A stretch of 64,000 bases of DNA from an uncultured Gaiellales bacterium (GTDB taxonomy: Bacteria > Actinomycetota > Thermoleophilia > RBG-16-64-13). The position numbers were made by a program, and so were the translations under genes. This document shows, in pieces, positions 5,125 to 51,481 of the stretch. How positions within the stretch are numbered: position 1 is the first letter of the stretch; each line of letters opens with the position of its first letter. A model generated the notes under the pieces. It ran no database searches. It worked only from the letters and a program-made list of their open reading frames with translations, and was not told the origin of the DNA. The stretch lies in NCBI GenBank assembly GCA_964592075.1, contig CAZQDY010000001.1:60399-124398 (forward strand), given 5' to 3'.

Positions 5125-5135
<11 letters not shown>

Positions 5136-7706: not shown

Positions 7707-7731
7707 GAACCCCTCCCTCGTCAGGCCCCGT

Positions 7732-11074: not shown

Positions 11075-11098
11075 ACAACGTAGCATCAGCCTGGAGCC

Positions 11099-17751: not shown

Positions 17752-17805
17752 CGTAGTCTCCTTGCGTAGCTTGACCGCCGGCGGCGCTCGTCTGTGCGGG
17801 CGTCC

Positions 17806-18906: not shown

Positions 18907-18943
18907 CGATCTTCCTCTCTCTGGACCCGAGGCAGGCCCGCAC

Positions 18944-19651: not shown

Positions 19652-20417
19652 CGAAGGTCCCCTTGCCCAAGTAGGCCGCGCACACCTCGGGATCGTTGCA
19701 CACCGTCTCGGCGTCCCCCTCGGCTATCTTCTCGCCGTAGTTGAGGACGACGATCCTGTCGCAGACGTCGGTCACGACCCTCATGTGATGTTCCACCAGC
19801 ATGACGGTTATGCCCTGCTCGCGGATCTTGCGGATGATCTCTACCATCGCGTTCGACTCGGTCGGGTTCATCCCGGTCACCGGCTCGTCGAGCAACAGAA
19901 GGCCGGGGCTGGTGGCGAGGGTGATGCCCACGCTCAGCATCCGCTGATGGCCGTGGGACAGATTGGCCGCGAGCTCGTCCTTGAGGTGCGTCAGCCCTAC
20001 GAACTCCAGTATCTCGAGGGCCCGCGCCTTGAACCGGGCTTCCTCCTCCCGAGCCTTCTTGCCATAGACGAAGCTGCTGGCCAGCCCGACGGTGCGGGTG
20101 CGATGGAAACCCACGATGACGTTCTCGAGGGCGGATATGTTGTCGAAGAGCACCGAATGCTGGAACAGCCGGGCGATGCCGCGCCTTGCGACGGCGTGAG
20201 CCGGGAGACCCACCAGGTTCCTTCCCTGGAATAGGATCTCTCCGCTGGTGGGCTTCTGGAAACCGCTGATCATGCTGAACACGGTGGACTTGCCCGCCCC
20301 GTTGGGCCCGATGAGCCCGAAGATCTCCTGCTCGTGCACCTCCATGTCAAGGTCCTTGACCGCCGTCAGCCCCCCGAAGCGTTTGGTGAGACCTTTGATC
20401 TCCAGGATCGTGCTCAT
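19641..20417 (-). CDS. livG: HAAT-type ABC transporter ATP-binding protein, LivG-like
   Basis: Start re-chosen at ATG 20417 (MSTILEIKGLTKRFGG). GPNGAGKST, LSHGHQR, LLLDEP, VEHHM. Confidence 0.92.
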   Translation of the reverse strand: MSTILEIKGLTKRFGGLTAVKDLDMEVHEQEIFGLIGPNGAGKSTVFSMISGFQKPTSGEILFQGRNLVGLPAHAVARRGIARLFQHSVLFDNISALENVIVGFHRTRTVGLASSFVYGKKAREEEARFKARALEILEFVGLTHLKDELAANLSHGHQRMLSVGITLATSPGLLLLDEPVTGMNPTESNAMVEIIRKIREQGITVMLVEHHMRVVTDVCDRIVVLNYGEKIAEGDAETVCNDPEVCAAYLGKGTFDAA

Positions 20418-21493
20418 GGCTCTCCTTCCGATCCGGCTCCGTCCGGCCGCTCGGCCGCGGGCTCCCCCTCTGTCGGAAGGGAAGCGGGTGCGGGTCGCTG
20501 CCGCCGGAGACGATACCCGAAGGCTCTCGCGAAGAGCCCCTGGACCTCCGACGCCGACCGGCCCCGGAAGAGCCCCATGATCCCCTGGGGGACAAAGATC
20601 AGGATGAGGATGATGATCGCGCCGGTGATCATGGGCTCGAAGCCTTTCGTGACCCTCAGGGCCTCGGGGATCACCACCAGGACCCCGGCGCCGATGATGG
20701 GACCGAGTATGGGGGCGACCACTCCGCCGAGGATCGCGTACATCTGCACGTAGATGACTTTGAACACGCCATACGAGTCCGGCATGATGTTGGTGGAGTA
20801 GTGGGCGAAGAACACTCCCATCAAGGCGGCCATGGCCGAGCAGATGACAAACCCCAGCAGGCGGTACCGGAAGAGGCTGATGCCGACAGACTGGGCCAGG
20901 TCGGTACTGAGTCCCATCGCCCGCCAGACCCGGCCGGTCCATGCCCGGTATAGAGCAAGGGTCACCACCACGACTATCACAGCGAGGACAAGCAGCAGGT
21001 AGTAGTACGAGCGCGTCGAGCCGAACACGATGTCGGCGTCGCCCGGCAGGGGGATCGTGTTCACGGGGGGGATACGGATGAGGCCCACCCGCCCCCCGAA
21101 GACCTTGAAGGTCGCGAACACGAGGGGCACGATGAAACCGAAGATCAGGCTGGGCATGATGAAGCCCAGCCCTGAGTAACGGACTATGATCGCCCCGAAC
21201 AGAGCGGCGACGCACGCGGCAATGATGATCGACAGGGGCAGTGACGCCCAGAACGAGAGACCGCCCTTGAGGGTCAGCATCGCCGAGGAGTAGGCTCCGA
21301 TCCCCCAGAAGGCCGCGATCGACATGTTCAGCATGCCCGCGCGCAGCAGGATGACGAAGGTCATCGCCAGCACCGCGTTCATCATGATAATGATGAGGAG
21401 GTGCATGTAGTAGTCGCTGCTGATGAACTGCGGTAGGGCGATCACCACCAGGAGGAAGACGATCGCCAGCGACCATCTGAGGCGCTTAGACAC
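20414..21493 (-). CDS. livM: HAAT-type ABC transporter permease, LivM-like
   Basis: Multi-TM protein with AGMLNMSIAAFWGIGAY, LAQSVGI and GPIIGA. Confidence 0.88.
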   Translation of the reverse strand: MSKRLRWSLAIVFLLVVIALPQFISSDYYMHLLIIIMMNAVLAMTFVILLRAGMLNMSIAAFWGIGAYSSAMLTLKGGLSFWASLPLSIIIAACVAALFGAIIVRYSGLGFIMPSLIFGFIVPLVFATFKVFGGRVGLIRIPPVNTIPLPGDADIVFGSTRSYYYLLLVLAVIVVVVTLALYRAWTGRVWRAMGLSTDLAQSVGISLFRYRLLGFVICSAMAALMGVFFAHYSTNIMPDSYGVFKVIYVQMYAILGGVVAPILGPIIGAGVLVVIPEALRVTKGFEPMITGAIIILILIFVPQGIMGLFRGRSASEVQGLFARAFGYRLRRQRPAPASLPTEGEPAAERPDGAGSEGEP

Positions 21494-22376
21494 GGCCGAT
21501 CTCCTCTATGTTCTTGCCCAGTAGACCGCCCGGCTTGAAGAGCAGGATGACGAGGATGACGGCGAAGAAGAGTATCTGGGCCTCGCCACTCCCCACGAAG
21601 TACTGGCCGTAGCTGAGACTCATCCCAAAGACCAGCCCGCCGAGGATGGCGCCCATCATGCTCCCCACGCCGCCGAGCATAACGACCAGCATCACGAGGA
21701 AACCATTGGAGGCCATGCTGACTTCGACTCCGAGGATAGGAGCCATGATCCCCCCGGCGAACCCGGCCAGGGCGCAGCCGATGGTGACGGCGATCATGAA
21801 CATACGGTCGGCGTTGACCCCTTGGAGTGTTGCGACGTCGGCCCGGAATGACACGGCGCGCATCGCGCGGCCTCTGCGGGTCTTTCGCAGAAGGATGTGC
21901 AGAGCCAGCAGCACCACTGCGCTGATGCCGATGACGATGACTTTGTCGGTCGGGATCCTGACTCCGAGCACTTCGATGACGGAGGTGAACACGGGCGGGA
22001 CGCTCCTTGACCCGGTCCCGAAGATCATGAGGGCGGCCTGGCCGATGATCAGCATCAGCCCGACTCCTGCGATGATGTTCGTCAGGAACTGGTTCCTCCG
22101 GAACTGTAGGGGCCGGAAGACGAGCACATAGCTGAGCGCGCCAAGGATCGCCGTCGCGATGACTGCGATGATCACCGCCAGGAGATAGTAGACTCCCGCT
22201 CTCACCTGCAGGTACCAGACCGCGAAGGCGCCCAACATGTAGAAGTCGCCGAAAGCGATGAAGATGATGTTGGGCACCGCCATGACCAGGTTGAAACCCG
22301 AGGACATGAGCATATAGACGACGCCGATGGATAGTCCGTCGACGAACAACTGGATCATCGTCCTACCCATAAGCAT
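21486..22376 (-). CDS. livH: HAAT-type ABC transporter permease, LivH-like
   Basis: GFNLV...IAFGDFYMLGA, GRAMRAVS, ATLQGVN, GGVGS. RBS AGGAGGTGA; the start could instead be 22370. Confidence 0.88.
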   Translation of the reverse strand: MLMGRTMIQLFVDGLSIGVVYMLMSSGFNLVMAVPNIIFIAFGDFYMLGAFAVWYLQVRAGVYYLLAVIIAVIATAILGALSYVLVFRPLQFRRNQFLTNIIAGVGLMLIIGQAALMIFGTGSRSVPPVFTSVIEVLGVRIPTDKVIVIGISAVVLLALHILLRKTRRGRAMRAVSFRADVATLQGVNADRMFMIAVTIGCALAGFAGGIMAPILGVEVSMASNGFLVMLVVMLGGVGSMMGAILGGLVFGMSLSYGQYFVGSGEAQILFFAVILVILLFKPGGLLGKNIEEIGRV

Positions 22377-22423
22377 TCACCTCCTGGACACCGTCTGCCG
22401 TTTGGGCTCGCGAACAGAGATCC

Positions 22424-22456
22424 CGGGGCCCGAAGGACGCCGTCCTCCGGGCCCCG
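22424..22456 (-). terminator. Stem-loop between the binding-protein gene and livH
   Basis: cggggcccgaaggacg / cgtcctccgggccccg. The single mismatch is a G-U pair in the minus-strand RNA. Confidence 0.6.
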
Positions 22457-22469
22457 TACCTGTGGGGGG

Positions 22470-23801
22470 CTAGGCCCAACCGTACGTCTTCTTGTTGTAT
22501 TCGAAAGCCCTGTCGAGGCTGAGCTCTTCGATGACCTTCCATTCGCCCTTCTCGACGACACCCATGGTGACGGCGTAGATGCAGTCGACACACTGCGGGT
22601 TGTCAAGGTCGGGGCGAGGGATGATCTTCCCATGGCCGTCGGGGCTGTCGAATTCGAAGCCTGCGTGCATCACCTCGGCCAGTTTGGTGGCGTCGAGCGT
22701 GGCGGCCTTCTCCAGAGCCGCCTTGAGCAGCCACAGTGTCTGGCTGTGGAAGATAGCCGGGTAGTCCCACTCTCCAAACTTGGCCACGTACACGTCGTAC
22801 AGCTCTTTGGCCGCCGCCGGCGGCTTGGGCAGTTCAAACAGAGCCCAACTGGAAGCGACGTTCTCATGGTTCTCGATCGGTACGACCTTCGTTGCCGAAC
22901 CCGGCACGAAGCCCACGGTGATCCACTTGGGACCCTCGAAGCCGGCCTGTTTCATAGCCTTGAAGAACTGGCCGTCGGAGACATCGCCGCCACCGCAGGT
23001 GCTGAAGACCTCGCCGCCGGAGGCGACGAGCGTCGTCGCGATGGCGCTGAAGTCAGTCGTGCCCATCGGGTACAAGATCTCTTTAACGACCTCCTGGCCC
23101 CAGGCCTTGCAGAGCATCTCGAGCTTCCTGGACTCTTCATTGCCCTGAAGGTTGTCCGGATGTCCCCCCATGACCTTCTTGACGTCGGGCCATCGCTCGC
23201 TGCACCACCCCCATATTTGGGCAGGCTTCGTATTCAGATAGGTAGCCTGGAACGTCAGCTTGTTGATCGGCTTCAGGATCTCAGGCGACGGGCTGCCCGC
23301 GATGACCAGCTTGCCGGCCTGCTCGGTGAGCGGCTGCCAGTAGTCGGTGCTCTCATCGCCAAGGATGAACTCGACCTTGTCCTCGTTCAGGAGGCGTTGC
23401 ACGGCCGAGCGGCTCGTCTCCGAGTCCCTCTTGCCGTCGTACATGATGAGGTCGACCTCGTAGGCCTGGTCGCCCACCTTGATGCCACCGGTCGAGTTCA
23501 TGTGCGGGACGTACGCTTCCATGATGTGCTGCCACATGACGTGGAGCGGGAAGGAGTAGTCCAGGATCATGCCGACCTTGAGCTTCTGCAGGCCGGCAGC
23601 CACTGTGGTGGTGGCTCCCGCGGCCGCAGTGGTCGTGGTGGCTGTGGGCTCATCGTCCCCGCAGGCCGCGACCAGGCCGCCAAGACCGGCGCCAAGACCG
23701 ATCGCGGCTCCCGCCATACCTGCCAGCTTCAGGAACTCGCGCCGGCTTACTGACCTGCCTTGTGCCTCATCGTTGAGGCTGGTATCCGGTTTCTCGCTCA
23801 T
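22470..23801 (-). CDS. HAAT-type ABC substrate-binding protein, Tat-exported lipoprotein
   Basis: SRREFLK twin-arginine motif, hydrophobic segment, lipobox LVAAC, Thr-rich stalk, then LKVGMILD. Confidence 0.85.
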   Translation of the reverse strand: MSEKPDTSLNDEAQGRSVSRREFLKLAGMAGAAIGLGAGLGGLVAACGDDEPTATTTTAAAGATTTVAAGLQKLKVGMILDYSFPLHVMWQHIMEAYVPHMNSTGGIKVGDQAYEVDLIMYDGKRDSETSRSAVQRLLNEDKVEFILGDESTDYWQPLTEQAGKLVIAGSPSPEILKPINKLTFQATYLNTKPAQIWGWCSERWPDVKKVMGGHPDNLQGNEESRKLEMLCKAWGQEVVKEILYPMGTTDFSAIATTLVASGGEVFSTCGGGDVSDGQFFKAMKQAGFEGPKWITVGFVPGSATKVVPIENHENVASSWALFELPKPPAAAKELYDVYVAKFGEWDYPAIFHSQTLWLLKAALEKAATLDATKLAEVMHAGFEFDSPDGHGKIIPRPDLDNPQCVDCIYAVTMGVVEKGEWKVIEELSLDRAFEYNKKTYGWA

Positions 23802-23899: not shown

Positions 23900-25006
23900 C
23901 TACCCCTTCCTGTACCTGGGCGGGATCCAGGTGTCGGTCTTGTCGGACTCGGGGACCGAATCCATCCAATTGATACCCCATACGTCGGGCCTTCCGCTCA
24001 TGAACATCCGGTCGTGAGGGACGGGCAGATCCCAGAGCCGGACCGCGTTCCCTCCCAGGATCAGGTTGATCTCGTCCTGGGTCAGGTAGTCACGCAGCTT
24101 GTCGATCTGATGCAGCTCCCAGCCCCACCAGTCCGCCTGGTACGTCGGCACCTTCGGCCAGTGATGCATGGCGGTGGTGAAGGTGGGCGGGTCGGCGCCC
24201 GGGTTCATGACTATGTATTGCGGGACATGCCCGTAGTCGGCGCCCCAGATGAGCTGGCTGATCAGGATGTTCGGGTCCTTGAGCGCGTAGAGGTAGTACT
24301 GCCAAGGCCAGTTGCCCGTCTCCAGATAGATGTTCTTGCCGGAACAGGCGGCCAGTGCTCTGCGTATGACGGCAGCACCCTGAGTATACGAGCCGATCGA
24401 GTAGCCGCCGTGACAAAGAACGATCGGCACCTCGGGGTACTCTCTGGCTATGCGGGCGAGAAGAGCATAGGGATCCCACTCGTACGCCATGGTGAAGTCG
24501 TGGAAGTCAACCGTGACGCCGTACTTCTCTGCCAACTCCATGAAGGTCCGGTATTCGTTCAACCTCTCCTCGAACGTGTAGATCTTCTTGGGGTCCCAGT
24601 CCTGAGGGACGAACTCGCCGATGCCGATGAACATGCCGGTCTTGAGCGCGTTCTCCACTTCCTGCGCCGCATCGTCGAGCGACCACTTGGCTTCGCCACG
24701 GGCGATCTTGAGCTTGCACGTCTGGTCGGCGCAGAAGGCCCGGAACTTGTCAGGGTACTTCCGCACCAGATCAGCCTGGTACTCATTGGTCGTGCCCTGC
24801 ATGCTCGGTTTGAGCAGGCACATATCGACGCCGTAGCGTTCCATGTCGTAGAGGCACAGGGGCGAGTTGTCGTAATGGATCACCTCCCCCGCGTCCGGTG
24901 TCATCGGCAGGCCGTTCCAATCGTCTCCGGCATCGCCTTTGGGTTTGTAAAGGGTGGTGATATGGGCGTGGGTCTCGACCACGAACCGGCCGGCGGCTCT
25001 CATCAT
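23900..25006 (-). CDS. Amidohydrolase family (Amidohydro_2-like) metalloprotein, paralog 3
   Basis: Start re-chosen at ATG 25006 (RBS GAAGGAGG). VVETHAH, MERYGVDMCLL, IGIGEF, DFHD, LCHGG, IYLETG, IWGADYG, GGNAVRLW. Confidence 0.85.
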   Translation of the reverse strand: MMRAAGRFVVETHAHITTLYKPKGDAGDDWNGLPMTPDAGEVIHYDNSPLCLYDMERYGVDMCLLKPSMQGTTNEYQADLVRKYPDKFRAFCADQTCKLKIARGEAKWSLDDAAQEVENALKTGMFIGIGEFVPQDWDPKKIYTFEERLNEYRTFMELAEKYGVTVDFHDFTMAYEWDPYALLARIAREYPEVPIVLCHGGYSIGSYTQGAAVIRRALAACSGKNIYLETGNWPWQYYLYALKDPNILISQLIWGADYGHVPQYIVMNPGADPPTFTTAMHHWPKVPTYQADWWGWELHQIDKLRDYLTQDEINLILGGNAVRLWDLPVPHDRMFMSGRPDVWGINWMDSVPESDKTDTWIPPRYRKG

Positions 25007-25089
25007 TCCTGTCCTCCTTCCCAGACCTCGCGACGTGCCCGGATCTCTCCTTCGCGCCGCTCGCTCCGGCGATAGTGAGACTCGCCACC

Positions 25090-25156
25090 GTTGCGAAATG
25101 CGCAACAGCATGCTTGACTGGTGATACCATAACTTCGAGCCTCACCCGGAGTCAAG
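25090..25156 (-). promoter_or_regulatory. Leftward promoter and palindromic operator candidate in the IclR divergent region
   Basis: Minus strand TTGACT (25155-25150), 18 bp, TATGGT (25131-25126). Palindrome GTTGCG-AAATG-CGCAAC at 25090-25106. CTTGACT/AGTCAAG inverted pair at 25113-25119 and 25150-25156. Confidence 0.55.
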
Positions 25157-25216
25157 AGGCGCGTGATACCGTCGAGCGCGAAGCACTCCCATCAAGAAAG
25201 GGCGACCAAGGACAAG

Positions 25217-26047
25217 ATGGCCGAGACCATGGACGACGCACAGCAGGGCGGCGGCAGAGGCCCCCAGTTGGTACAGTCGCTGTCGCGGGGATTGGGCATT
25301 CTCAGCCAGTTCACCGCGGAATCGCGCAGTCTCAGCCTTGCCGACCTCAGCCGCCGGACCGGTCTTCACAGGGCCACGGTCTACCGCTTCGCCCGGACCC
25401 TCGAGACGGAGGGCTTCTTGACGTACGATCCCGATTCCGGACTCTACAGCGTCGGTCCCGCCTGGGCCGCGGCGCTGTACTCGCTGGGCACCGATACGGT
25501 CTTGGCCGAGATCCTCAACGACGACATGCACGCGCTTTCGGAGGCCGTCGGCGAGACCGTGACGCTCGCCGTGCGCCGGGGGGATCACGTACAGATCATC
25601 GCCATCACCCATTCCTCGCGCGTCTTCCGGCCGCGACTGCCCAGCAGCTCGCTCGTGGCCTTGAACGAGTTCTGGAACGTACACGCGAAGATCCACCTCG
25701 CCTACGCGAGCGACGACACGAGGCGCCGCATGCTTGCCATTCCGGCCACGCGGTACACCGAGAACACGATGACCGACCGGAAGGCTATCGCGGCCTGCCT
25801 GGCCAAGGTGGTGGAAGAAGGTGCGGCATACGACCTCGAGGAGCAGCAGAAGGGCGTGTGTGCCATCGCCGTGCCGGTCTTCGAGCGCGGGGATGTGGCG
25901 CTCGCTCTCGGGGTGGTCGTCCCGGTGGAACGCTTCGCCGAGGCCGACGTGGAACGGCTGCGGCGGGAACTGACCACTGTGGCCGGCTTGATGGGGGCCC
26001 GACTCGAGAAGGCGGCCTACGCCTGGAGAGAAGCCCTCGTCACGTAG
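25217..26047 (+). CDS. IclR family transcriptional regulator
   Basis: VQSLSRGLGIL...LSLADLSRRTGLHRATVYRF HTH and effector domain (YTENT, YDLEEQQKGVCAIAVPV). Start ambiguous (25163 GTG or 25217 ATG). Confidence 0.9.
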   Translation: MAETMDDAQQGGGRGPQLVQSLSRGLGILSQFTAESRSLSLADLSRRTGLHRATVYRFARTLETEGFLTYDPDSGLYSVGPAWAAALYSLGTDTVLAEILNDDMHALSEAVGETVTLAVRRGDHVQIIAITHSSRVFRPRLPSSSLVALNEFWNVHAKIHLAYASDDTRRRMLAIPATRYTENTMTDRKAIAACLAKVVEEGAAYDLEEQQKGVCAIAVPVFERGDVALALGVVVPVERFAEADVERLRRELTTVAGLMGARLEKAAYAWREALVT

Positions 26048-26058: not shown

Positions 26059-28050
26059 TTGCCACCGCCCGGAATAACCGAGACTGATCCGCGGCCCTGG
26101 CCCTACCCTATCGAGTACGGGCAGGAGACCAGAGCCGAGTACGACGTGCTGGTGATCGGAGGTGGTGTCGCAGGCTGCCATGCGGCGATCAACGCGGCCC
26201 GGAGGGGAGCGCGCGTCGCGATCCTGGACAAGGGCGCCATCATCCGCAGCGGGTCAGGAGGGGCGGGTGTGGATCACTGGCACGCGGCCTGCCTCAACCC
26301 CTGCAGCCGGGTAACGCCCGACGACTTGGTGGAGTACGTGCACAAGTCGCCCTTCCGGCAGACCACCGAATACGGCAACGCCATCACCAGCTACATCCTG
26401 GGGCGTGAGAGCTACGACACCCTGCTCGACCTGGAACAGATGGGCGTAACGGTGAGAGACGTCGAGGACGACTTCGTGGGCTCCGACTTCCGGGACGAGG
26501 AGACCAAGCTGCTTTTCGCCTACGACTACGAAGGGCGGCACTGCATCCGCGTGCAGGGTTGGGGCGTCAAGCCGGCCCTGCATCGGGAGCTCAAGCGGCT
26601 GAAGGTGGATGTCTACGACCGGCTCATGGGGACGAGCCTGCTGACCGAGGACGGGGCGCAAGGCGCGCGCGTGACCGGCGCGACGGCGCTAAACATCCGC
26701 ACGGGGCGGTTCTACACCTTCCTCGCGAGGTCCACCGTGCTGGCCACGGCCCGTCCGTTCCGCCTGTGGGTCTTCTCCACGGAGCTGCAGGGTCTGGCCT
26801 CCAGCTTCTTCGACCCCAACTGCGCCGGCGACGGCTGCGCGATGGCCTGGAGGGCCGGCGCCGAGCTGACGCTCCTGGAGCAGAGCTTCCCCTTCAGCGG
26901 CACCTTCCGCCACGTCCCGTACGGCACCGGCAACGCGCACAACTCCTGGTACGCCTGCAACATCGTCGATAACAGAGGGCGAGAAGTCCCCTGGGTCGAC
27001 CGCGACGGCAGACCCCTCCACACGCTGGCGGAGCGCTACCGGCCCGCCCCCGGCCAGAGGTTCTTCCTGTCCTGCCCGGACGTCCCCCGCGACTACCAGG
27101 GGCCGGGGCTCATCCCCGACCTCCCCCAGCGCATCCGCGACGGGGAGTTCGAGCTGCCCCTCTACGCCGACCTCCCCAGCATGCCCCCCGACGAACGAAG
27201 GGCTCTCTTCGGGCTCATGATCGGCCACGAAGGCAATACCAGGATCCCCATCTACGCCGCGTACACCCAGGCGGGGTTCGACCCCGACAAGGACATGCTG
27301 CAGGCCAACGTGCTGCCGCCCGACGCGTACAGGTTCGGCGCTTGGTGGGCGGCCGTGCCTCCGCCTCAGTGGCGAGAGGTGGGCAAGCTGGTGCAGGGAG
27401 GCGGTCTGGTGTTCGACTGGGATCTGAGGACCACGCTCCCCGGGCTCTACGCCGCCGGCGAGCAACTCGCCTGCGGCGGCAACCACGCGGCCTCGGCCAC
27501 AACCGGCCGCTATGCAGGCCGGAAGGCGGCGGAGCACGCGTGGCAGGCGCCCCCGCCTCGTGTGAGTGAAGCTCAGGTGGAGGCCGAGAAACGTCGGGTC
27601 TACGCACCGGCTGCCCGGCACAGCGGGTTCGGCTGGAAAGAAGTGCAGGCCGGCCTCTCCCGGGTCATGCAGGACTACTGCGGTGAGTACAGGAGCCGGC
27701 AGACCTTGGAACGTGGTCTGCAATGGCTCGAGAGCATCGAAGAGAGCGAACTGGCCTCGATCCATGCCCGGAACCCCCACGAGCTGATGCGTTCGCTGGA
27801 GGTGGGCGTGCGGCTGGAGGTGGGACGCGCGATGATGCACGCCTCTCTGGCGCGCAGAGCGAGCAGCGAGGCCCTGGGCTTCAAACGCATCGACTACCCC
27901 GAGTGCGATCCTCCCGAGTGGGACAAGCTGGTGACCATCAGGCTGGAGGCAGCCGAGGTGGTCGCCGGAGAGCTCCCCTGCGACTACCCGGAGCTCCCCC
28001 CGTATGCTCCGGACTGCGAGACCAACTACCGGCTCCACTCCGGGCTGTGA
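26059..28050 (+). CDS. FAD-dependent oxidoreductase, adenylylsulfate reductase alpha (AprA)-like / SdhA-FrdA superfamily
   Basis: TTG start at 26059 after GGAGGAG. DVLVIGGGVAG FAD loop, DKGAIIRSGSGG, GDGCAMAWRAGAEL, TTLPGLYAAGE, ASLARRAS C-terminal domain. Lacks the canonical AprA RSGAVAQGL (from memory). Confidence 0.8.
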   Translation: MPPPGITETDPRPWPYPIEYGQETRAEYDVLVIGGGVAGCHAAINAARRGARVAILDKGAIIRSGSGGAGVDHWHAACLNPCSRVTPDDLVEYVHKSPFRQTTEYGNAITSYILGRESYDTLLDLEQMGVTVRDVEDDFVGSDFRDEETKLLFAYDYEGRHCIRVQGWGVKPALHRELKRLKVDVYDRLMGTSLLTEDGAQGARVTGATALNIRTGRFYTFLARSTVLATARPFRLWVFSTELQGLASSFFDPNCAGDGCAMAWRAGAELTLLEQSFPFSGTFRHVPYGTGNAHNSWYACNIVDNRGREVPWVDRDGRPLHTLAERYRPAPGQRFFLSCPDVPRDYQGPGLIPDLPQRIRDGEFELPLYADLPSMPPDERRALFGLMIGHEGNTRIPIYAAYTQAGFDPDKDMLQANVLPPDAYRFGAWWAAVPPPQWREVGKLVQGGGLVFDWDLRTTLPGLYAAGEQLACGGNHAASATTGRYAGRKAAEHAWQAPPPRVSEAQVEAEKRRVYAPAARHSGFGWKEVQAGLSRVMQDYCGEYRSRQTLERGLQWLESIEESELASIHARNPHELMRSLEVGVRLEVGRAMMHASLARRASSEALGFKRIDYPECDPPEWDKLVTIRLEAAEVVAGELPCDYPELPPYAPDCETNYRLHSGL

Positions 28051-28403
28051 AAGGGAGAGCGCTTGTGGAAGCCTGGATGGCAAGCAACCCCGAGACGCCG
28101 TGCCGAGCGGTCCTCATAGACCCGGCAGTGTGCATCGGCTGTAACACATGCGTCGAAGTGTGCAGGTCGGACGTCATGGTGCCTAGCGCGCTGGAAGGCG
28201 GACCGCCGGTAGTCCTCTACCCCGACGAGTGCTGGTTCTGCGGTTGCTGCGTCGGTCACTGCCCGACCCCGGGGGCGATCTCCATGAACCACCCGCTGAA
28301 CCAGCGCGCCGCGTGGAAGCGCAAAGAGACCGGCGAGTTCTTCCGCATCGGCATGAAGAACCCGCCTCCGCCCAATCTCCGGCCGCCCGTTGGCGGATGG
28401 TGA
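28047..28403 (+). CDS. 2x[4Fe-4S] ferredoxin, AprB-like
   Basis: CIGCNTCVEVC and PDECWFCGCCVGHCP. GTGA overlap with the flavoprotein stop; alternative starts at 28065 and 28077. Confidence 0.85.
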   Translation: MKGRALVEAWMASNPETPCRAVLIDPAVCIGCNTCVEVCRSDVMVPSALEGGPPVVLYPDECWFCGCCVGHCPTPGAISMNHPLNQRAAWKRKETGEFFRIGMKNPPPPNLRPPVGGW

Positions 28404-28835: not shown

Positions 28836-28889
28836 ACCCGGCGTCGCCCGAGCGCCCACGCGCCGGCCGGTCTTCTTGAAGGAGATGAT

Positions 28890-31532
28890 GTGGAGCGACC
28901 TCTCGAGAAGCCTGTAGAAAGGTCGGGTGAACGCACGATCGTCCGTGACATGGCGTTCCTTGGCGCTCCCTGGGGCGCCAATGCCTGCATGATCGACGTG
29001 AAGGATGGCAGGATCCTCCGCATCCGCCCGGCCCGCTACTACGACGAGTACACCAAGGAGCAGGTGGGGCCCTGGGTGATGCATGCCCGGGGCAAGACTT
29101 TCGAACCCAGCGAGAAGACTCTGCCGCCCCCGCTCAGCCTGGCCTACAAGAAGCGGGTCTACTCACCGGCCCGTATCCGCTACCCCATGAAGCGGGTGGA
29201 CTTCGACGCGAGCGGGGCCCCAGGCTCTACGGGCCCCGGTGGCCGCAACATCCACAACCGGGGCGTGAGCAAGTACGAACGCATCAGCTGGGACGAGGCC
29301 CTCGACATCGTCACGGGCGAGATGCTCCGGGTCAAGCAGACCTACGGCCCCACGGCCATCCTCTACCAGAACGACCAGCACGGCGAGAGCAAGGTGGTGC
29401 ACGGCCCGCACGGATGCGGCCGCAAGCTGCTCCGTCTCTTCGGCGGGTACACGCACCAGGTGCGCAACGCCGACAGTTGGGAGGGGTGGTGGTGGGGCGC
29501 CAAACACGCGTGGGGCTGCGAGTACCTGGGCCAGCAGAAGCCCCAGAGCAACCTGCTGTGGGACATCGCCAAGAATGCGGAGCTTCTGCTCTTCTGGGGA
29601 TGCGACCAGGAGACCACCACCTGGGGTTGGGGTGGGCAACTCCCCAGCCGCCTCAGCTACTGGTGGACGGAGCTCGGCATCAAGCAGGTCTACATCGCGC
29701 CCGACCTGAACTACGCCGCTGCGGTCCACGCCGACCGGTGGATCCCTATACTGCCCAACACCGACGCCGCTCTCTATCTGGCCATCGCCTATCACTGGTT
29801 CAAGAACGGCACCTACGACAAGGAGTACCTCGAGACTCACGCCTACGGCGTCGACGAGTTCGAAGCGTACGTGATGGGCGGCGAGAACGGAGTCGCCAAG
29901 AGCCCCGAGTGGGCCGCGCCTATCACCGGGGTACCGGCCCGCGTCATCAAGGCCTTGGCCGAGGAGTGGGCTACGAAGCGCACGACCGTGGTCATCGGCA
30001 ACGGAGGCCCGGGCATCCGCGGCCCCTACGCCACCGAACCCGCCCGGCTGCAGGTGCTGTGCTTGGCCATGCAGGGCTTGGGCAGACCGGGCTGCAACCA
30101 GGCCAAGATGATCGAGTGGGCTCTTTTCGGCAAGCCTGACAACCAGGCGGCGCCCAAGCCCGCGGTGTCTCTCAACCTGTCGGCGGCCTACCGGGGCGAC
30201 CTGCCTCCGGAATACAAGCGCGAGTCGTGCATCCCCAAGACCCTGGTGCCGCAGCTCATCCTGGACGGCGAAGGCACCTGGTACGGGAACCGCCTGGGCG
30301 CGCACAGCAACCGCGAAGACCAGTTCGTCAAGTATGAGTACCCGGCGGAGGGCGCGTCGAGGATCCACATGATCTGGACCGACTCCCCCTCATGGATCAC
30401 CTGCTGGAACGACGGCAACAACTTCATCCGGGCCATGCGCCACCCCGACATCGAGTTCATCTTCTGCCAGCACCCCTGGATCGAGAACGAGGCCCTCTTC
30501 GCCGACGTCGTCCTGCCTGTCAACACCAAACTCGAAGAGGACGACATCGGTAGCGACGTGTTCAGCGGTCAGCTCGACCTGCTCTACCCGCAACCGCGCT
30601 GCATCGAGCCGTTGGGGGAGTCGTTCAGCGACTATGAGGTCGTCTGCATGATCGCCGAGCGCCTCGGCCTGCTGGAGGAATACACGGACGGAATGACGGT
30701 GGAGGAGATCATCCGGTCGGGCTATGAGAGCTCGGGGGCGGCCGACAAGATCTCCTGGGAGGAACTGAACAACAAGGGCTACTACGTCATCCCGCCTGAC
30801 CCCGATTGGGAGAAGATCCCGGCCGGGCTCATCGGGTTCTATGAGGATCCCGAGAGCCATCCCCTCTCCACTCCCAGCGGCAGAGTGGAGTTCCGCTCCA
30901 TCGGGCTTGCGGAGCACTTCCCCGACGACCCGGAACGGCCGCCGGTACCCAAGTGGATCCAGCAGGGAGAGTCGCACGAGGAGACGCTCGGCACGGAGAG
31001 GAGCAAGAAGTATCCGCTCCTTGTCATGAGCAACCACCCCCGTTGGGGAGTGCATTCTCAGCACGACGACGTGACCTGGCTGCGCGAGATAGAGACCTGC
31101 AAGGTCCGGGCCTCTGACGGCTATCAGTATCAACCACTGTGGATGAACCCGGCGGATGCCGCCACCAGGGGCATCGAGCACGGGGATGTGGTCCGCATCT
31201 ACAACGAGCGGGGCACGGTCCTGGCCGGCGCCTACGTCACCGAACGGATCATCCCCGGGGCTGTGGGCATCGACCACGGCGCCAAGTACGACCCCATCGT
31301 GCCCGGCGAGATAGACCGGGGCGGGGTGATCAACACCATCGTGCCTCGCAACTGCACATCGAAGAACACCGTGGGAATGGCGGTCTCGGGTTTCCTTGTG
31401 GAAGTGGAGAAGGCCGACCTCGACGAGCTGCGGCGCAAGTACCCGGAACCGTTCGCAAGACAGTGTCACGTAGCGGCCGGCCCCTGCGTGGCCGGAGTAA
31501 CGGAAAACAAACACGGAGGCTTAGTCACATGA
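28890..31532 (+). CDS. Molybdopterin (Mo/W-bisPGD, DMSO reductase superfamily) oxidoreductase, pyrogallol hydroxytransferase large-subunit-like
   Basis: VKDGRILRIRP, ARGKTFEP, RIRYPMKR, YERISWDEA, DSWEGWWWG (Ser Mo ligand), NTDAAL, FADVVLP, SNHPRWGVHSQ, C-terminal molydop-binding domain. No Tat signal and no N-terminal Fe-S cysteines. Confidence 0.85.
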   Translation: MERPLEKPVERSGERTIVRDMAFLGAPWGANACMIDVKDGRILRIRPARYYDEYTKEQVGPWVMHARGKTFEPSEKTLPPPLSLAYKKRVYSPARIRYPMKRVDFDASGAPGSTGPGGRNIHNRGVSKYERISWDEALDIVTGEMLRVKQTYGPTAILYQNDQHGESKVVHGPHGCGRKLLRLFGGYTHQVRNADSWEGWWWGAKHAWGCEYLGQQKPQSNLLWDIAKNAELLLFWGCDQETTTWGWGGQLPSRLSYWWTELGIKQVYIAPDLNYAAAVHADRWIPILPNTDAALYLAIAYHWFKNGTYDKEYLETHAYGVDEFEAYVMGGENGVAKSPEWAAPITGVPARVIKALAEEWATKRTTVVIGNGGPGIRGPYATEPARLQVLCLAMQGLGRPGCNQAKMIEWALFGKPDNQAAPKPAVSLNLSAAYRGDLPPEYKRESCIPKTLVPQLILDGEGTWYGNRLGAHSNREDQFVKYEYPAEGASRIHMIWTDSPSWITCWNDGNNFIRAMRHPDIEFIFCQHPWIENEALFADVVLPVNTKLEEDDIGSDVFSGQLDLLYPQPRCIEPLGESFSDYEVVCMIAERLGLLEEYTDGMTVEEIIRSGYESSGAADKISWEELNNKGYYVIPPDPDWEKIPAGLIGFYEDPESHPLSTPSGRVEFRSIGLAEHFPDDPERPPVPKWIQQGESHEETLGTERSKKYPLLVMSNHPRWGVHSQHDDVTWLREIETCKVRASDGYQYQPLWMNPADAATRGIEHGDVVRIYNERGTVLAGAYVTERIIPGAVGIDHGAKYDPIVPGEIDRGGVINTIVPRNCTSKNTVGMAVSGFLVEVEKADLDELRRKYPEPFARQCHVAAGPCVAGVTENKHGGLVT

Positions 31533-32896: not shown

Positions 32897-35800
32897 TCAG
32901 CAGCCGCCCAGGGCGGCGTAGGCGTTACGGAACATCCTCATCCACGGGCTGCTCCGGAAGCCCCATCCGGGTGGAACCCAGGGCCATTGGCGCAGCTGGA
33001 AGCACCGCTCGGGGTGAGGCATGATCGCCAGATGGCGGCCGTCGGGGGAACAGAGCGCCGCGATGCCCTGAGGGCTGCCGTTGGGGTTGTAGGGGTACGC
33101 GGTGGTGATGCACCCCGCCGGGTCGACATAGCGCACCGGGGCCAGGCGGCTGTCGACGATCCAGTCGAGAGTGGCCGGATCGGGAACGTGGAGCCTACCC
33201 TCGCCGTGCGCCACGTACACGCCGAACACCGAACCCGCCATCCCTCGGAGCATCAACGCCGGGCTCTCTTCTACGGAGACGGTGCTGAACCGGGATTCGA
33301 AACGTCCGGAGGTGTTCCGGATGAACCGCGGCTTCAGCTCGTCGGGGAGCCCGAAGCCGGGGATACCCAGTAGTCCCATCAGCTGGCACCCGTTGCACAC
33401 ACCCAGCGAGAGAGTGTCGGGCCGCGCGAAGAAACGCGCGAACTCCTCGGACAGGCGCTCGTTGTTGCGTATCACCGAGGCCCAGCCCTTGGCCGCATCC
33501 AGGACGTCGGCGAAGGCGAACCCACCGGGGAAGGCCACCAGTTGGAAGCCCTCCAGGTCGGCGCCGCCGCCGATGAGGTCCGTCATGGTGACGTCCCAGA
33601 CCTCGAACCCGGCCGCCGCGAAGGCTGCCGCGAGTTCCCGGTCGCCGTTGCTGCCCTCTTCGCGGAGGATGGCGGCCTTCGGCGCGGCGCGGCGCGCACC
33701 TGGCGCGGCGGCGGTCGAGCCGGCGCCGGTGTCTGAGCGGGTGCCACTCGCCGGCGGCCCCGCGTCGGCGTAGGTGCCGCCCGGCGGCGCATCAGCGTCG
33801 GGGTCGAACGTCAGTCTATAGGGGGCCGTCCCGGGGGGCGCCGAATGAGACGCCCACTCCTCTTCAGCGCACGCGGGGTTCTGCTGCAGGCGTTCCAACT
33901 GGTAGGCCGTCTCCTCCCACAGCAAGTGCAGTGCCCGGGCGCTCTCCCGCATCACAGGCTGGTCATTGAAGCTCAACTCGACGTTCAGGTCTTGCACACG
34001 GCCCAGCCTGACCGCCTTGACCCCGTGGCTCTCCAGGACCCGGCCGGCCCCGAGCCGGTAGGCCACCCCGAGCCGCCCCTGCTCGGGGACCACCCCGAGC
34101 CGTCCCTGCTCGGGGACCATCCCGAGCCCCTCCCGCTCGGGGACCACCCCGAGCCCCTGCGCCTCGGAGACGACCTCCACCACCACTCCCGCCTCTTCGG
34201 CGAAAAGCGATGCGTACAGCTCGTCGCCTTCCAGGGCGACGGCCCAGCCCTTGTCGCCGGCGAAGGCCATCTCCAGCAGGGTCACTATGAGCCCGCCGTC
34301 GCTGACGTCGTGACAGGAGACGATCGTGCCCGAGCGGACCAGGTCCTGCACCGCCTCAAACACCGCCCGCAACGCACCCGGGTCTTCGATGTCGGGTGCC
34401 TCGTCGCCGAGCTGGCCGAGAACCTGGGCGAGCGCGCTCCCCCCCAGCCTCCGCTTGTCTCCCACCGGCAGCAGCCAAAGCTCGTTGCCGCTCTCCTTAA
34501 GGCCGGGAGTCACCCGGAGCTCCACGTCGGGCATGAGGGCGTACGGGGCCATCACCAGCTCCGGCGGGGCCTTGACCAGCTCTTTGCCGCCCTCGGGAGT
34601 CACGCCCTGACTGGCCATGGAGAGGCTGTCCTTGCCGCCGTCGATGGCGATGCCCAACTCCATCAGGATGTCGCGGAGCGCGCAGGCCGCGTCGTACAGC
34701 CAGGCGCCTTCGCCGGGTTGCTTCACCGCCAGCATCCAGTTGGCGGAGCACTTGATGTCGCTGATGCCGGTGATGACCGCCCCGGCCATGTTGAGCAGCG
34801 CCTCCGCGACGGCCATGCGTACCCCCGCCCCGGGGCTGATGAGACCCTTGATGGGCTGCTCGCCCAGGCTGACAGCCGTGCCCGACGGGTCGTCGTAGGT
34901 CTGAGCGATGACCGCGTAGTCGGAAAGAGGCAGGTGGCGCGGCCCCACCAGCTGCCGCTGGACGACGAGCCCCGTGACATCAAGGTCGACCTTGTTGGTG
35001 AGAAAGCGCTTGGAGCAGACGGAGGGCAGCCGCAACACCATCTCCAGCACTCGCTCCAGGTCCGAAACGGGGGGAAGGACCAGGGGCTGGAGGTCTTGGC
35101 GCGGCGCGCGCCGCTCGAACTCGAACCGCTTGGGCGGCAGCTGCCCAAGGATGTCGTCAAGGGGCAGGTCCACCGGCCTGCTGTCGTCGATGGAATCGTA
35201 GACCACCAGGATCCCGTCGCCGGTTATCCGGCCCACCACGGCTAGAGGCACGTTCTCCCGGGCGGCCAGGTCCTCCAATACCGGGAGACCTTCGGGCAGC
35301 ACCAGGAGGGCGTTCCGCTCCTGCGACTCGTTGCCCCAGATCTCGAGAACGGAAAGGGTCTTGTCGCCCACCGGGATGGCCCGCAGGTCGACCACCGCCC
35401 CGGCGGGCTCCACAATCTCGGGCAGCGCATTGCAGTCGCCGCCGGCTCCCAGATCGTGGGCCGAGACGATCGGGTTCGCCTCTCCCAGTTCGACGCAGGC
35501 CCGCATGAGGCGGTTGACCCGCTGTTCCATCTCCGGGTCGCCGCGCTGGACGGCGTTGAAGTCGAGTTCCTGAACGTTGGTGCCCTGCTCCATGCTGCTT
35601 GCCGCTCCGCCGCCCATGCCGATGCGGTAGGCCGGCCCGCCCACCTGCACCACGAGCATGCCCTTCTCTGGACCGCCCTTGACCGTGTGCTCGTCGCGTA
35701 TCTGGCCGGCTCCCACGCTGTACATGATGGGCTTGAACCAGGAACGGTAGCCATCTGGCAGGCGCAGCCCGTAGGTGCGCGTGAAACCGTAGATCAGCGG

Positions 35801-36970
35801 TTCGCCGAAGCAGTTGCCGTAGTCGGAGGCGCCGTTGCTTGCCTCGATGAGGATCTCCGTCGGCGAGGCGAGGTCGGGGGGATGGAAGTAGCCGTCTTCC
35901 TCCCAGGGGAGCATGTAGCCGGGCAGGTGGAGATTGCCCACGCAGTAAGCGGCGCCCGACGCGCACACCAGCCCGCCCCGCCCCACCGCCTGGTTGTCGC
36001 GGATGCGCCCTCCGCCGCCGGTGGCCGCGCCGGGATAGGGAGCCACACCCGAGGGGAAGTTGTGCGTCTCCGCCGTCAGCGTAGGATGCAGGAGCGTGGG
36101 CATCCGCACCAGCGGTGACGGCCCCAGCGGCGCCGAAGCGGCGAACAGGCGCACCTGGGTCCCGTGGATGGCCGAGCTGTCGTCACGAAAAGCGATGACC
36201 GAGTTCGGCCCCGAAGTCGCCAGCGGCTGCTTCACGATCTCCATGAGGTTCTTCTCCGGCACCCGCTCGCCGTCCACCCACAGCTCGCCTTTGAAGACCC
36301 AATGACGGGAGTGCTCCGAGTTGGCCTGGGCTATCTGGAACAGCTCCACGTCGGTGGGATCCCGCTCCAGCCGCCGGAAGATGCCTGCGATGAGCTCCAG
36401 GTCGCTCGAGTCCCAGCTGCAGCCGTAGGCGCGATCGAACTCTGCAAGGGCGGCACTCCCCCGCGCCAGCAGCGGGATCCGGCGCACGGGCTCCGGTGAT
36501 ATGCCGGTTTCGAAAGAGGTCAGAGGCTCGGCATAACGCATCTCGGTCATGCGGTCGTGGAGAGGCGCCAGTATCTCATCGATCTCCTCACCAGAGAGCG
36601 GTTCCGCGAACCCCAGACGGACCGAGCGCTCCAAGCGGCGCACTGAGCGCGCTCCCGACCGGCGGCAGATCTCGACGGCGTTGGACGACCAGGCGGTCTC
36701 GAAGCTCAAGCGCGGTCCGAACTCGATGATGGTGGAGAACCGCCCTTCAAGGAAGCTCTCGGGCCCGAACTGCCGTGGTTCGAAGGTCTCCGAGAGGGCA
36801 TAGTCGAGAACCGCCAGCTCATGGGCGCCCAGGGACCCCTCGGCCTCCACATAGAAGCACCATTCCGTGCCCGGCTCCTCCACGGGATGCCCGACGACCC
36901 GCTCGGCGATCGAAACGACCGCCTCGACCCGCGCCGGGGTCATGCTGGGTGTCCGGAAGAAACGTAGCAT
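32897..36970 (-). CDS. purL: Phosphoribosylformylglycinamidine synthase, large single-chain form
   Basis: QANSEHSRH, AETHNFP, GAATGGGGRIRD, DFNAVQRGDPEM, HDLGAGG, HDVSDGG. Fused glutaminase domain (REEGSNGDRE, LGVCNGCQ, AHGEG, MPHPER). Start re-chosen at ATG 36970. Confidence 0.95.
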   Translation of the reverse strand: MLRFFRTPSMTPARVEAVVSIAERVVGHPVEEPGTEWCFYVEAEGSLGAHELAVLDYALSETFEPRQFGPESFLEGRFSTIIEFGPRLSFETAWSSNAVEICRRSGARSVRRLERSVRLGFAEPLSGEEIDEILAPLHDRMTEMRYAEPLTSFETGISPEPVRRIPLLARGSAALAEFDRAYGCSWDSSDLELIAGIFRRLERDPTDVELFQIAQANSEHSRHWVFKGELWVDGERVPEKNLMEIVKQPLATSGPNSVIAFRDDSSAIHGTQVRLFAASAPLGPSPLVRMPTLLHPTLTAETHNFPSGVAPYPGAATGGGGRIRDNQAVGRGGLVCASGAAYCVGNLHLPGYMLPWEEDGYFHPPDLASPTEILIEASNGASDYGNCFGEPLIYGFTRTYGLRLPDGYRSWFKPIMYSVGAGQIRDEHTVKGGPEKGMLVVQVGGPAYRIGMGGGAASSMEQGTNVQELDFNAVQRGDPEMEQRVNRLMRACVELGEANPIVSAHDLGAGGDCNALPEIVEPAGAVVDLRAIPVGDKTLSVLEIWGNESQERNALLVLPEGLPVLEDLAARENVPLAVVGRITGDGILVVYDSIDDSRPVDLPLDDILGQLPPKRFEFERRAPRQDLQPLVLPPVSDLERVLEMVLRLPSVCSKRFLTNKVDLDVTGLVVQRQLVGPRHLPLSDYAVIAQTYDDPSGTAVSLGEQPIKGLISPGAGVRMAVAEALLNMAGAVITGISDIKCSANWMLAVKQPGEGAWLYDAACALRDILMELGIAIDGGKDSLSMASQGVTPEGGKELVKAPPELVMAPYALMPDVELRVTPGLKESGNELWLLPVGDKRRLGGSALAQVLGQLGDEAPDIEDPGALRAVFEAVQDLVRSGTIVSCHDVSDGGLIVTLLEMAFAGDKGWAVALEGDELYASLFAEEAGVVVEVVSEAQGLGVVPEREGLGMVPEQGRLGVVPEQGRLGVAYRLGAGRVLESHGVKAVRLGRVQDLNVELSFNDQPVMRESARALHLLWEETAYQLERLQQNPACAEEEWASHSAPPGTAPYRLTFDPDADAPPGGTYADAGPPASGTRSDTGAGSTAAAPGARRAAPKAAILREEGSNGDRELAAAFAAAGFEVWDVTMTDLIGGGADLEGFQLVAFPGGFAFADVLDAAKGWASVIRNNERLSEEFARFFARPDTLSLGVCNGCQLMGLLGIPGFGLPDELKPRFIRNTSGRFESRFSTVSVEESPALMLRGMAGSVFGVYVAHGEGRLHVPDPATLDWIVDSRLAPVRYVDPAGCITTAYPYNPNGSPQGIAALCSPDGRHLAIMPHPERCFQLRQWPWVPPGWGFRSSPWMRMFRNAYAALGGC
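34048..34167. repeat. In-frame tandem array of 27-bp self-palindromic repeats inside purL
   Basis: Full units at 34066-34092, 34093-34119 and 34120-34146, with partial units on both sides. Each unit carries (c)cccgagc...gctcgggg inverted arms. Encodes about (LGVVPEQGR)x3. Confidence 0.85.
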
Positions 36971-37112
36971 CCTATTCCATGCAACCTTATCACCCGGGAC
37001 CCGGCGGGAGGCGCCGGCGGCGGCCGACGGTGGCCGCCGGCATCTCGATATGCGCAATATGCGGCTTGTCTGTTATCTTGTGACATCCGCTATTCCGGGG
37101 GTATCTGCCTTC

Positions 37113-45317: not shown

Positions 45318-45331
45318 GGGATGCCTCCGCC

Positions 45332-47213: not shown

Positions 47214-47238
47214 TGATCCTTCCCCCGGCTAGAGGTGG

Positions 47239-47272
47239 GGTGGGAAGGGGCGGCGCGCCGCCCCTTCCCACC
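47239..47272 (-). terminator. Perfect 34-bp palindrome between the binding-protein gene and livH
   Basis: ggtgggaaggggcggcgcgccgccccttcccacc equals its own reverse complement. Confidence 0.7.
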
Positions 47273-47284
47273 TCGTTCACGGGC

Positions 47285-48598: not shown

Positions 48599-48698
48599 AC
48601 CATCTCCATTCCTTGATCGTCCCCTAGATCGTCCCTCGAATCTCCTGTCGATCGTCACGTCGTCGGCCCAAGCCCTCGTCCCGCATTCACCTCCGTGT

Positions 48699-51427: not shown

Positions 51428-51481
51428 GCGCGAGCCCCTCCCCTACGCCACGTCGCAGACGCCGATGCGGGTCACGCTCAC

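Follow-up and report, generated by a model that had tools for sequence, protein, structure and literature searches.

A molybdoenzyme of a transhydroxylase sister family encoded without an adjacent beta subunit gene in a Gaiellales catabolic island

The DNA stretch analyzed here (hereafter the window: 64,000 nucleotides of contig CAZQDY010000001.1, assembly GCA_964592075.1, from an uncultured Gaiellales bacterium) carries at positions 28890-31532 a molybdoenzyme gene, referred to below as the Mo gene. According to our analysis, it is predicted to encode the catalytic subunit of a cytoplasmic, serine-ligated bis-molybdopterin guanine dinucleotide (Mo-bisMGD) enzyme of a sister family of the pyrogallol-phloroglucinol transhydroxylase (TH) of Pelobacter acidigallici. 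This sister family, designated here family 2, consists of the clades GP and AC, and the Mo gene is positioned in family 2, within the GP clade and, inside the latter, within a beta-less subclade. The subclade is a derived branch without a dedicated adjacent gene for the iron-sulfur (Fe-S) beta subunit, and it has moved into varied catabolic islands. On balance, we favor the view that the enzyme performs a stand-alone hydroxyl-transfer, hydroxylase or dehydroxylase step on a phenolic compound within a modular catabolic island controlled by an IclR-family regulator.

The relationship to TH was evident at the levels of domains, sequence and fold. Two Pfam domains of the Mo protein exceeded their gathering scores (PF00384, Molybdopterin, 1.9e-19; PF01568, Molydop_binding, 6.5e-19), and the AhtL-like_1st domain PF21423, described in Pfam as “pyrogallol hydroxytransferase large subunit-like domain 1,” was recognized with 33.5 bits against a cutoff of 27. 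The top sequence match in the PDB was the alpha subunit of TH (4v4c_A, E 1.7e-134), with the dimethyl sulfoxide (DMSO) and trimethylamine N-oxide (TMAO) reductases trailing at E 1e-72 or weaker. An AlphaFold (AF2) model built from a 44-sequence alignment had a mean predicted local distance difference test (pLDDT) of 82.8 and a predicted template modeling score (pTM) of 0.86; the Foldseek search with this model returned 4v4c_A first (TM 0.83), followed by MtsZ, DMSOR and TorA at about 0.75. In the multiple alignment, the Mo protein was about 39% identical to TH alpha and collinear with it over the full length. The motifs that a sequence-only reading of the stretch had matched to TH alpha (VKDGRILRIRP, ARGKTFEPS, YERISWDEA and DSWEGWWWG) were all present and aligned with the P. 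acidigallici protein, and its classification of the enzyme as TH-like, rather than as a DMSO, TMAO or biotin sulfoxide reductase, was borne out by the sequence, fold and tree checks alike.

The first 60 residues of the Mo protein contain a single Cys and no twin-arginine motif, i.e., neither an N-terminal Fe-S motif nor a Tat signal; hence, the protein is expected to be cytoplasmic and, like TH alpha, to have no Fe-S cluster of its own. Ser196 aligns with Ser175 of TH inside the invariant D-S-W, as in the serine-ligated type III enzymes of the MopB family. The gene evolves under purifying selection, with a ratio of nonsynonymous to synonymous substitution rates of about 0.12-0.17 relative to four orthologs. 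In the phylogenetic trees (FastTree and an IQ-TREE quick run), it fell within family 2 and not inside the clade of the P. acidigallici enzyme; the true TH clade was separate, with a support of 100.

For the comparison of the active sites, a TH ortholog from a related locus (65-70% identity) was aligned by HMMER, and TH residues 7-866 were reconstructed from this alignment. The reconstructed sequence reproduced the numbering of His144, Tyr152, Arg153, Asp174, Ser175, Trp176, Trp354, Tyr404 and Tyr560. We take these nine positions to constitute the TH active site, including the residues that hold pyrogallol and those that serve the tetrahydroxybenzene cosubstrate, in roles reportedly set out by Messerschmidt and colleagues in 2004; Ser175 is the Mo ligand and His144 the catalytic His. 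Four of the nine, invariant in the alignment, are retained in the window protein as H164, D195, S196 and W197, so the catalytic His and the Asp-Ser-Trp triad are kept, as the sequence-only reading had it. The other five are lost. The multiple alignment gave the substitutions H145G, W147S, Y152G and R153P; Trp354 aligns with either G or N, the assignment varying between alignments; and gaps of 15 and 9 residues stand in place of the Tyr404 loop and the Tyr560 loop, respectively. The replacement of the neighboring substrate positions had thus been noticed correctly, and it extends to the two deleted loops.

The pocket string of the window protein is HGSGPH...DSW. The signature HG[NST][GA][PC]H...DSW, together with the deletion of both Tyr loops, was common to all 89 family-2 sequences found in 79 related loci and extends to a family numbering thousands in the databases; most of these have a beta gene directly downstream. 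Consequently, the remodeled pocket, which had been ascribed to the window gene in particular, is a trait of the entire family. Judging from the alignment, the family-2 pocket would be unable to bind pyrogallol and the cosubstrate in the manner of TH. The idea of a new reaction therefore stands insofar as the residues with which TH handles its substrate and cosubstrate are lost, so that either the reaction or the substrate has to be other than in pyrogallol-phloroglucinol transhydroxylation, but it does not single out this gene.

Family 2 is large. At E<=1e-20, a word-index protein search with the Mo protein gave 5948 matches. The top 120 of them were 69-94% identical to it, and no specific name occurred among those 120, which were labeled, for example, “molybdopterin-dependent oxidoreductase” or “TMAO reductase.” An exhaustive search with clustering at 50% identity gave 666 representatives at E<=1e-30, and the database names of the intermediate representatives offered no anchor such as resorcinol hydroxylase. 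The 79 related loci were taken from contigs of one genome per species, with open reading frames (ORFs) called and clustered in all of them. The host organisms comprise Actinomycetota (Thermoleophilia, Gaiellales and others), Chloroflexota (including Dehalococcoidia), Desulfobacteraceae and Geopsychrobacteraceae of the Desulfobacterota, Flavonifractor, Ruthenibacterium and other Oscillospiraceae, and one archaeal bin. Across four phyla, the identity within family 2 was at least 68%.

The three clades are separated by their pocket residues. The true TH clade has HHWYRH..DSW..W..Y..Y and always a beta gene, the AC clade has HGNACH..DSW and the GP clade HG[NST]GPH..DSW, the last two without both Tyr loops. 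A 279-amino acid Fe-S protein, which matches the beta subunit of TH (4v4c_B, E 2e-51), is encoded directly downstream of 89 of 129 Mo genes in these loci. Family-2 genes mostly have this beta gene directly downstream and often stand beside genuine TH genes: TH orthologs that possess all nine residues, as well as a beta gene, share loci and genomes with family 2. MobA and MobB genes also adjoin family-2 genes in related loci.

The gene neighborhoods connect family 2 with phloroglucinol degradation. In 11 loci, at least three of the families SDR (short-chain dehydrogenase/reductase), cyclase, 3HCDH (3-hydroxyacyl-CoA-dehydrogenase-like) and BKACE are encoded beside TH and family-2 genes; these four families degrade phloroglucinol in Clostridium scatologenes (PMC10470551). 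“Two transhydroxylase operons” have been described in sediment Chloroflexi (PMC3971608), and this pair corresponds to the convergent TH pair and AC pair that we found in L048, L049, L066, L069 and L078. Overall, family 2 most likely acts on hydroxylated aromatic rings. Some loci contain tandem arrays: L019 has up to six TH-family alpha genes and only three beta genes, in the order TH alpha-beta, GP alpha, GP alpha, GP alpha-beta, IclR, AC alpha-beta. Alpha arrays of this kind also occur in L016, L017, L018 and L050, and several of them adjoin genes of the phloroglucinol pathway.

Within the GP clade, the beta-less subclade comprises 18 members (L001-L013, L015, L016b, L019b, L036 and the window gene) and is monophyletic, with a value of 100 in the SH-like approximate likelihood ratio test (SH-aLRT) of the IQ-TREE quick run; FastTree recovered it as well. 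None of the 18 has a beta gene downstream. The basal GP members carry beta, and in an adjacent clade, termed “semi,” the alpha genes are placed straight after a TH alpha-beta pair. On a reduced tree, the state “beta downstream” changed at least four times. The absence of an adjacent Fe-S beta gene, already noticed from the letters of the stretch, extends to the whole window: tblastn with about ten beta queries of the family (E<=1e-3) detected no beta-type gene in the 64 kb. A decayed beta remnant downstream of the Mo gene was sought by tblastn as well, and none was found.

Ten residue switches are specific to the subclade (S161N, L189H, G411A, T435R, G437D, A456L, E468R, E470G, N563D and A827T in the numbering of the window protein), at positions with a conservation of at least 85-90% among the beta-linked proteins of family 2. 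Most of the switches are found 3 residues ahead of the catalytic His, 6 residues ahead of the Asp-Ser-Trp motif or in the stretches that correspond to the Tyr404 and Tyr560 loops. Their proximity to active-site segments suggests that the switches line the pocket and that the specificity has shifted. The APGSTGPG insertion that had been pointed out proved genuine in the multiple alignment, as an indel of 8 residues, but it is polymorphic: 15/18 beta-less sequences, 10/42 AC sequences, 4/19 of the other GP sequences and 1/22 TH-clade sequences have it. In the pairwise HMMER alignment to TH it is masked (no gap appears), because TH has its own 8-residue insert just downstream.

In the window, the Mo gene is part of a plus-strand operon, opposite to a divergent minus-strand operon (Table 1). 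The start codon of the downstream Amidohydro_2 gene overlaps the TGA of the Mo gene as ATGA, implying translational coupling. That protein has no sequence relative in the PDB at E<=1. The cupin encoded upstream of the Mo gene has a 72% identical ortholog in the syntenic locus L036, and the Amidohydro_2 protein that heads the divergent operon has an 83-86% identical ortholog in the syntenic loci L002 and L036. Besides the listed genes, the minus-strand operon holds two SDRs and a SnoaL-like protein. The four Amidohydro_2 paralogs stand within 16 kb, each weakly matched by Pfam (E 1e-9 to 1e-13); they form a divergent subfamily that accompanies the flavoprotein/ferredoxin pair in several loci.

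Table 1. Features of the two divergent operons around the Mo gene (window coordinates).
Feature	Position	Strand	Remarks
Amidohydro_2 paralog	16681-17805	-	PF04909
Amidohydro_2 paralog	17806-18969	-	PF04909
Liv-type ATPase	18944-19723	-	ABC_tran
Liv-type ATPase	19720-20420	-	ABC_tran
Liv-type permease	20414-21505	-	BPD_transp_2
Liv-type permease	21486-22376	-	BPD_transp_2
Liv-type binding protein	22470-23801	-	Peripla_BP_6
Amidohydro_2 paralog heading the divergent operon	23900-25111	-	PF04909
IclR-family regulator, first gene of the operon	25163-26047	+	Pfam HTH_IclR, IclR_C
FAD flavoprotein of AprA/PAPS-reductase/SdhA type, 663 aa	26059-28050	+	FAD_binding_2, Succ_DH_flav_C; TTG start, GGAGGAG
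2x[4Fe-4S] ferredoxin, AprB/PAPS-reductase-beta-like, 108 aa	28077-28403	+	Pfam Fer4 families
Small cupin, ~120 aa	28473-28835	+	Cupin_2 1.3e-14; ATG at 28473, AGGAGG at 28460
Shine-Dalgarno AGGAG	28880-28884	+	5 nt ahead of the Mo gene GTG; read from sequence
Mo-bisMGD catalytic (alpha-type) subunit gene	28890-31532	+	intact ORF, GTG start, predicted 880 aa
Amidohydro_2 protein, 408 aa	31529-32755	+	PF04909 E 1.9e-9; GGAGG at 31515

Based on these results, the favored stand-alone step may be outlined as follows. The Mo center would bind a hydroxylated aromatic ring, and a ring hydroxyl would be added, removed or shifted. The substrate would be other than pyrogallol, in a more open pocket in which the cosubstrate site of TH is absent, and the enzyme would work without a dedicated beta subunit. 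Its reaction would be a separate step in the anaerobic breakdown of a plant-type phenol that is imported, possibly a phenolic acid, by a pathway under IclR control; the coupled Amidohydro_2 enzymes may carry out (de)carboxylation or hydrolysis, while the AprAB-like flavoprotein/ferredoxin pair may perform a separate redox step or supply or accept electrons.

Several observations weigh against this proposal. No member of family 2 is known to have been characterized, so its proposed chemistry comes from homology and gene neighborhood, and the description of the ten switches as pocket-lining comes from their sequence position near known TH residues. Beyond generic SDR similarity, the window contains no genes of the phloroglucinol pathway. 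The neighborhood is also inconstant. The closest relative, L001 (89% identical), has no amidohydrolase, flavoprotein or ferredoxin, and the neighbors of the beta-less genes vary (a nitroreductase-family gene in 7/16 loci, FAD_binding_2 in 5, Amidohydro_2 in 3 and Fer4 in 3); the operon of the window may consequently say little about the substrate of the enzyme. Finally, the beta-less clade includes one locus, L013, with a full beta gene immediately upstream, and in the metagenome-assembled genomes (MAGs) of relatives alpha-beta pairs occur on separate contigs (L001 and L075, for instance, come from one MAG). For these two reasons, a beta subunit may act in trans, and “no beta subunit” can be asserted of the locus but not of the enzyme.

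The corresponding alternative is that the Mo protein forms an alpha-beta heterodimer with a BthL-type Fe-S subunit encoded elsewhere, e.g., in a paralogous operon, and that only the gene arrangement is beta-less. We regard this as rather unlikely, although several lines of evidence point to it. In addition to the case of L013, the genes of the “semi” clade stand right after a TH alpha-beta pair, and alpha-beta-alpha-alpha-alpha-beta arrays exist in L019 and L016. Alpha-beta loci were likewise obtained from nearly all MAGs that have a beta-less gene (L001/L075, L002/L059, L009/L033, L010/L067, L013/L070). Moreover, the number of highly conserved columns in the beta-less clade is similar to that in the beta-linked GP members (376 vs 390), which gives no sign of the decay of a large surface. 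On the other hand, each beta gene in the genomes of those relatives is paired with its own alpha gene, and there is neither a beta-like sequence in the 64 kb of the window nor a downstream beta gene in any of the 18 clade members. The reaction of TH is said, in the same 2004 work of Messerschmidt and colleagues, to be net redox-neutral; if so, hydroxyl transfer can chemically dispense with a beta subunit, which also counts against a partner in trans.

A nitroreductase-family gene is the commonest occupant of the beta position and stands directly downstream of the beta-less alpha gene in six loci; its product may be an alternative redox partner. The six loci are L003, L006, L007, L013, L014 and L015, and the position is the beta slot of the sister clades. 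Taken further, the stand-alone reading would combine a TH-family enzyme without any Fe-S subunit, a new phenolic reaction, flavoprotein partners and the missing transhydroxylation genes; we put this combination forward tentatively, and it is doubtful that all of its parts hold jointly. Under it, the enzyme would shift a hydroxyl group without net redox change, or else hydroxylate or dehydroxylate its substrate, powered by non-canonical flavoprotein partners, which might be the nitroreductase-family protein in some lineages and the AprAB-like flavoprotein/ferredoxin in the lineage of the window. Together with its beta-linked sisters, such an enzyme would account for the additional transhydroxylations, long without genes, by which hydroxyhydroquinone-type and other phenols enter the phloroglucinol pathway.

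A second alternative, which we consider improbable, is that the Mo subunit, the ferredoxin and the AprA-like flavoprotein constitute a new three-component Mo/Fe-S/flavin oxidoreductase in which the ferredoxin replaces beta as the electron wire. The genes are indeed on the same strand in the same operon, the set recurs in L002, L003, L004, L012 and L036, and redox flavoproteins (the nitroreductase family and FAD_binding_2) are the commonest neighbors in the beta-less clade. However, the best PDB matches of the flavoprotein are 8a8o_A (5e-33) and AprA (1jnr), and those of the ferredoxin include 8a8o_C, the 104-amino acid beta chain of 3'-phosphoadenosine-5'-phosphosulfate (PAPS) reductase. Since the two proteins match the alpha and beta chains of one enzyme, they appear to be mutual partners in a self-contained pair akin to the known two-subunit PAPS and adenosine-5'-phosphosulfate (APS) reductases; the ferredoxin, which was not matched by the family beta queries in tblastn, is predicted to be the partner of the flavoprotein and not a TH-type beta subunit. 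The Amidohydro_2 and flavoprotein/ferredoxin set is associated with the Mo gene in only about 6/19 beta-less loci, and the gene order varies, the amidohydrolase preceding the Mo gene in L012 but following it in L036 and the window. The same counts settle the suggestion that an amidohydrolase is coupled in place of beta: the ATGA overlap is real, but the amidohydrolase, absent from L001, is not a conserved replacement of beta.

The AprAB-like pair (26059-28403) has no sulfate-reduction genes nearby, and its substrate is probably organic. In L003 the flavoprotein gene occurs in up to three tandem copies, and at 7400-9600 of L002 the syntenic gene appears split into several short ORFs, possibly by a frameshift or an assembly error.

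It is very improbable that the Mo protein is a soluble S-/N-oxide reductase acting on TMAO, DMSO, biotin sulfoxide or methionine sulfoxide, as automated pipelines name its homologs. Joint Genome Institute (JGI) records include “trimethylamine-N-oxide reductase (cytochrome c)” and “S/N-oxide reductase-like,” the best NCBIfam match is TIGR00509 (bisC_fam), and the predicted architecture (a single cytoplasmic subunit without Fe-S) resembles BisC and DorA. Nevertheless, the Mo protein reached 324 of the 1017 bits required by TIGR00509, and 270-274 of the 909-1465 required by the TorA models. TH is far nearer in both sequence and fold, and the tree groups the window gene with TH, apart from the DMSOR-like representatives. 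In a pairwise alignment, Asp and His occupy the positions of Tyr114 and Trp116 of the Rhodobacter sphaeroides DMSOR, which we take to be its oxo-binding residues. Lastly, an ordinary pyrogallol-phloroglucinol transhydroxylase alpha subunit, to which the best PDB match, the AhtL-like domain and the retained catalytic His, Asp, Ser and Trp would point, is effectively refuted by the alignment and the tree, given the loss of 5/9 active-site residues and the co-occurrence of family 2 with genuine TH orthologs of a separate clade.

The remainder of the window provides the context of the operon. It contains three Liv-type ATP-binding cassette (ABC) importer sets (4431-9185, 18944-23801 and 43847-48904) and a tripartite ATP-independent periplasmic (TRAP) transporter (54487-57060), and the combination of these with the IclR regulators, SDRs, SnoaL-like proteins and cupins suggests a region dense in islands of small-molecule catabolism. 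MobA/B, FMN-reductase, TatD-like and nitroreductase genes were sought in the window and not found. Directly after the catabolic operon, purL (32897-37057, minus strand) encodes a large single-chain formylglycinamide ribonucleotide (FGAR) amidotransferase with a fused glutaminase (1386 amino acids); the relatives of this genome are Actinomycetota. A VanW-like gene lies beyond purL in the window and directly after the Mo gene in L001. A 472-amino acid protein (11084-12502, plus strand) has a TetR N-terminal DNA-binding domain and a flavodoxin-like domain, which is unusual for a regulator, and a further protein (50435-51442, minus strand) unites a MerR and a TetR helix-turn-helix (HTH) domain.

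The locus was detected in metagenomes of bioreactors, anaerobic digesters and wastewater, in which the organism is common. In a biogas fermenter run labeled “RNA-Seq,” contigs span the cupin-Mo and Mo-amidohydrolase junctions; the read depth was low and equally even over purL and the operon, so that neither induction nor freedom from DNA carry-over follows from it.

The anaerobic breakdown of tannins, flavonoids and polyphenols bears on the chemistry of digesters and the gut, and in peat and sediments the link between polyphenol breakdown and carbon storage has been discussed as the “enzyme latch” (PMC10470551). The window gene belongs to a sister family of TH that is distinct, highly conserved and very abundant, and one branch of this family has shed the gene of its Fe-S partner. 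To our knowledge, one transhydroxylase and two related hydroxylases have been characterized so far, and the genome papers known to us name every relative “pyrogallol transhydroxylase” or “TMAO reductase.” Assignment of a reaction to family 2 would correct thousands of annotations. Family 2 could also supply the enzymes for extra transhydroxylation steps, for which biochemical descriptions in Pelobacter species date back decades and which, as far as we know, have never been tied to genes.

Among the known systems, TH (AthL/BthL, also PgtL; EC 1.97.1.2; PDB 4V4C) has the same fold as the AF2 model of the window enzyme. Both have the AhtL-like N-terminal domain, a cytoplasmic alpha subunit (predicted for the window enzyme) without Fe-S, the Asp-Ser-Trp motif with the Mo ligand and the catalytic His, and members of family 2 are genomically linked to phloroglucinol degradation. 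Unlike TH, the window enzyme has Tyr152, Arg153 and Trp354 replaced and the Tyr404 and Tyr560 loops deleted, and its subclade, located in a separate sister clade, has no adjacent BthL gene. A BthL-type beta subunit consists of three [4Fe-4S] clusters and a C-terminal barrel. The setting differs as well: in contrast to the phloroglucinol loci of the TH family, the window presents an island of IclR, ABC transporter, amidohydrolase and AprAB-like genes.

DorA, TorA, BisC and MtsZ resemble the window enzyme as type III MopB proteins with a Ser ligand, no Fe-S and one catalytic subunit; they are the next-best structural matches and provide a precedent for a MopB enzyme functioning without beta. They are far more distant from it, however, and their oxo-binding Tyr and Trp are not kept. 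Except for BisC, the S-/N-oxide reductases are mostly periplasmic Tat substrates, whereas the window enzyme is predicted to be cytoplasmic. The catechol dehydroxylases of gut Actinobacteria (Dadh, Hcdh, Cldh and others) are Mo-bisMGD enzymes that strip ring hydroxyls from plant and host phenolics under anoxic conditions (PMC7028382). They belong to a different MopB branch, near acetylene hydratase, have N-terminal Fe-S, Tat export and membrane partners, and were not among the close matches of the Mo protein; they serve as a functional analogy for a dehydroxylase role of the window enzyme.

RhL and PgtL have been placed in one family (PMC10100899). The resorcinol hydroxylase RhLS of Aromatoleum (Azoarcus) anaerobius and the 3,5-dihydroxybenzoate hydroxylase DbhLS of Thauera aromatica AR-1, compared here by description, are TH-related Ser-type MopB enzymes. 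Unlike the window enzyme, both are alpha-beta enzymes of denitrifying Betaproteobacteria. Since they hydroxylate phenolic rings anaerobically, they provide a precedent for relatives of TH that operate as true redox hydroxylases.

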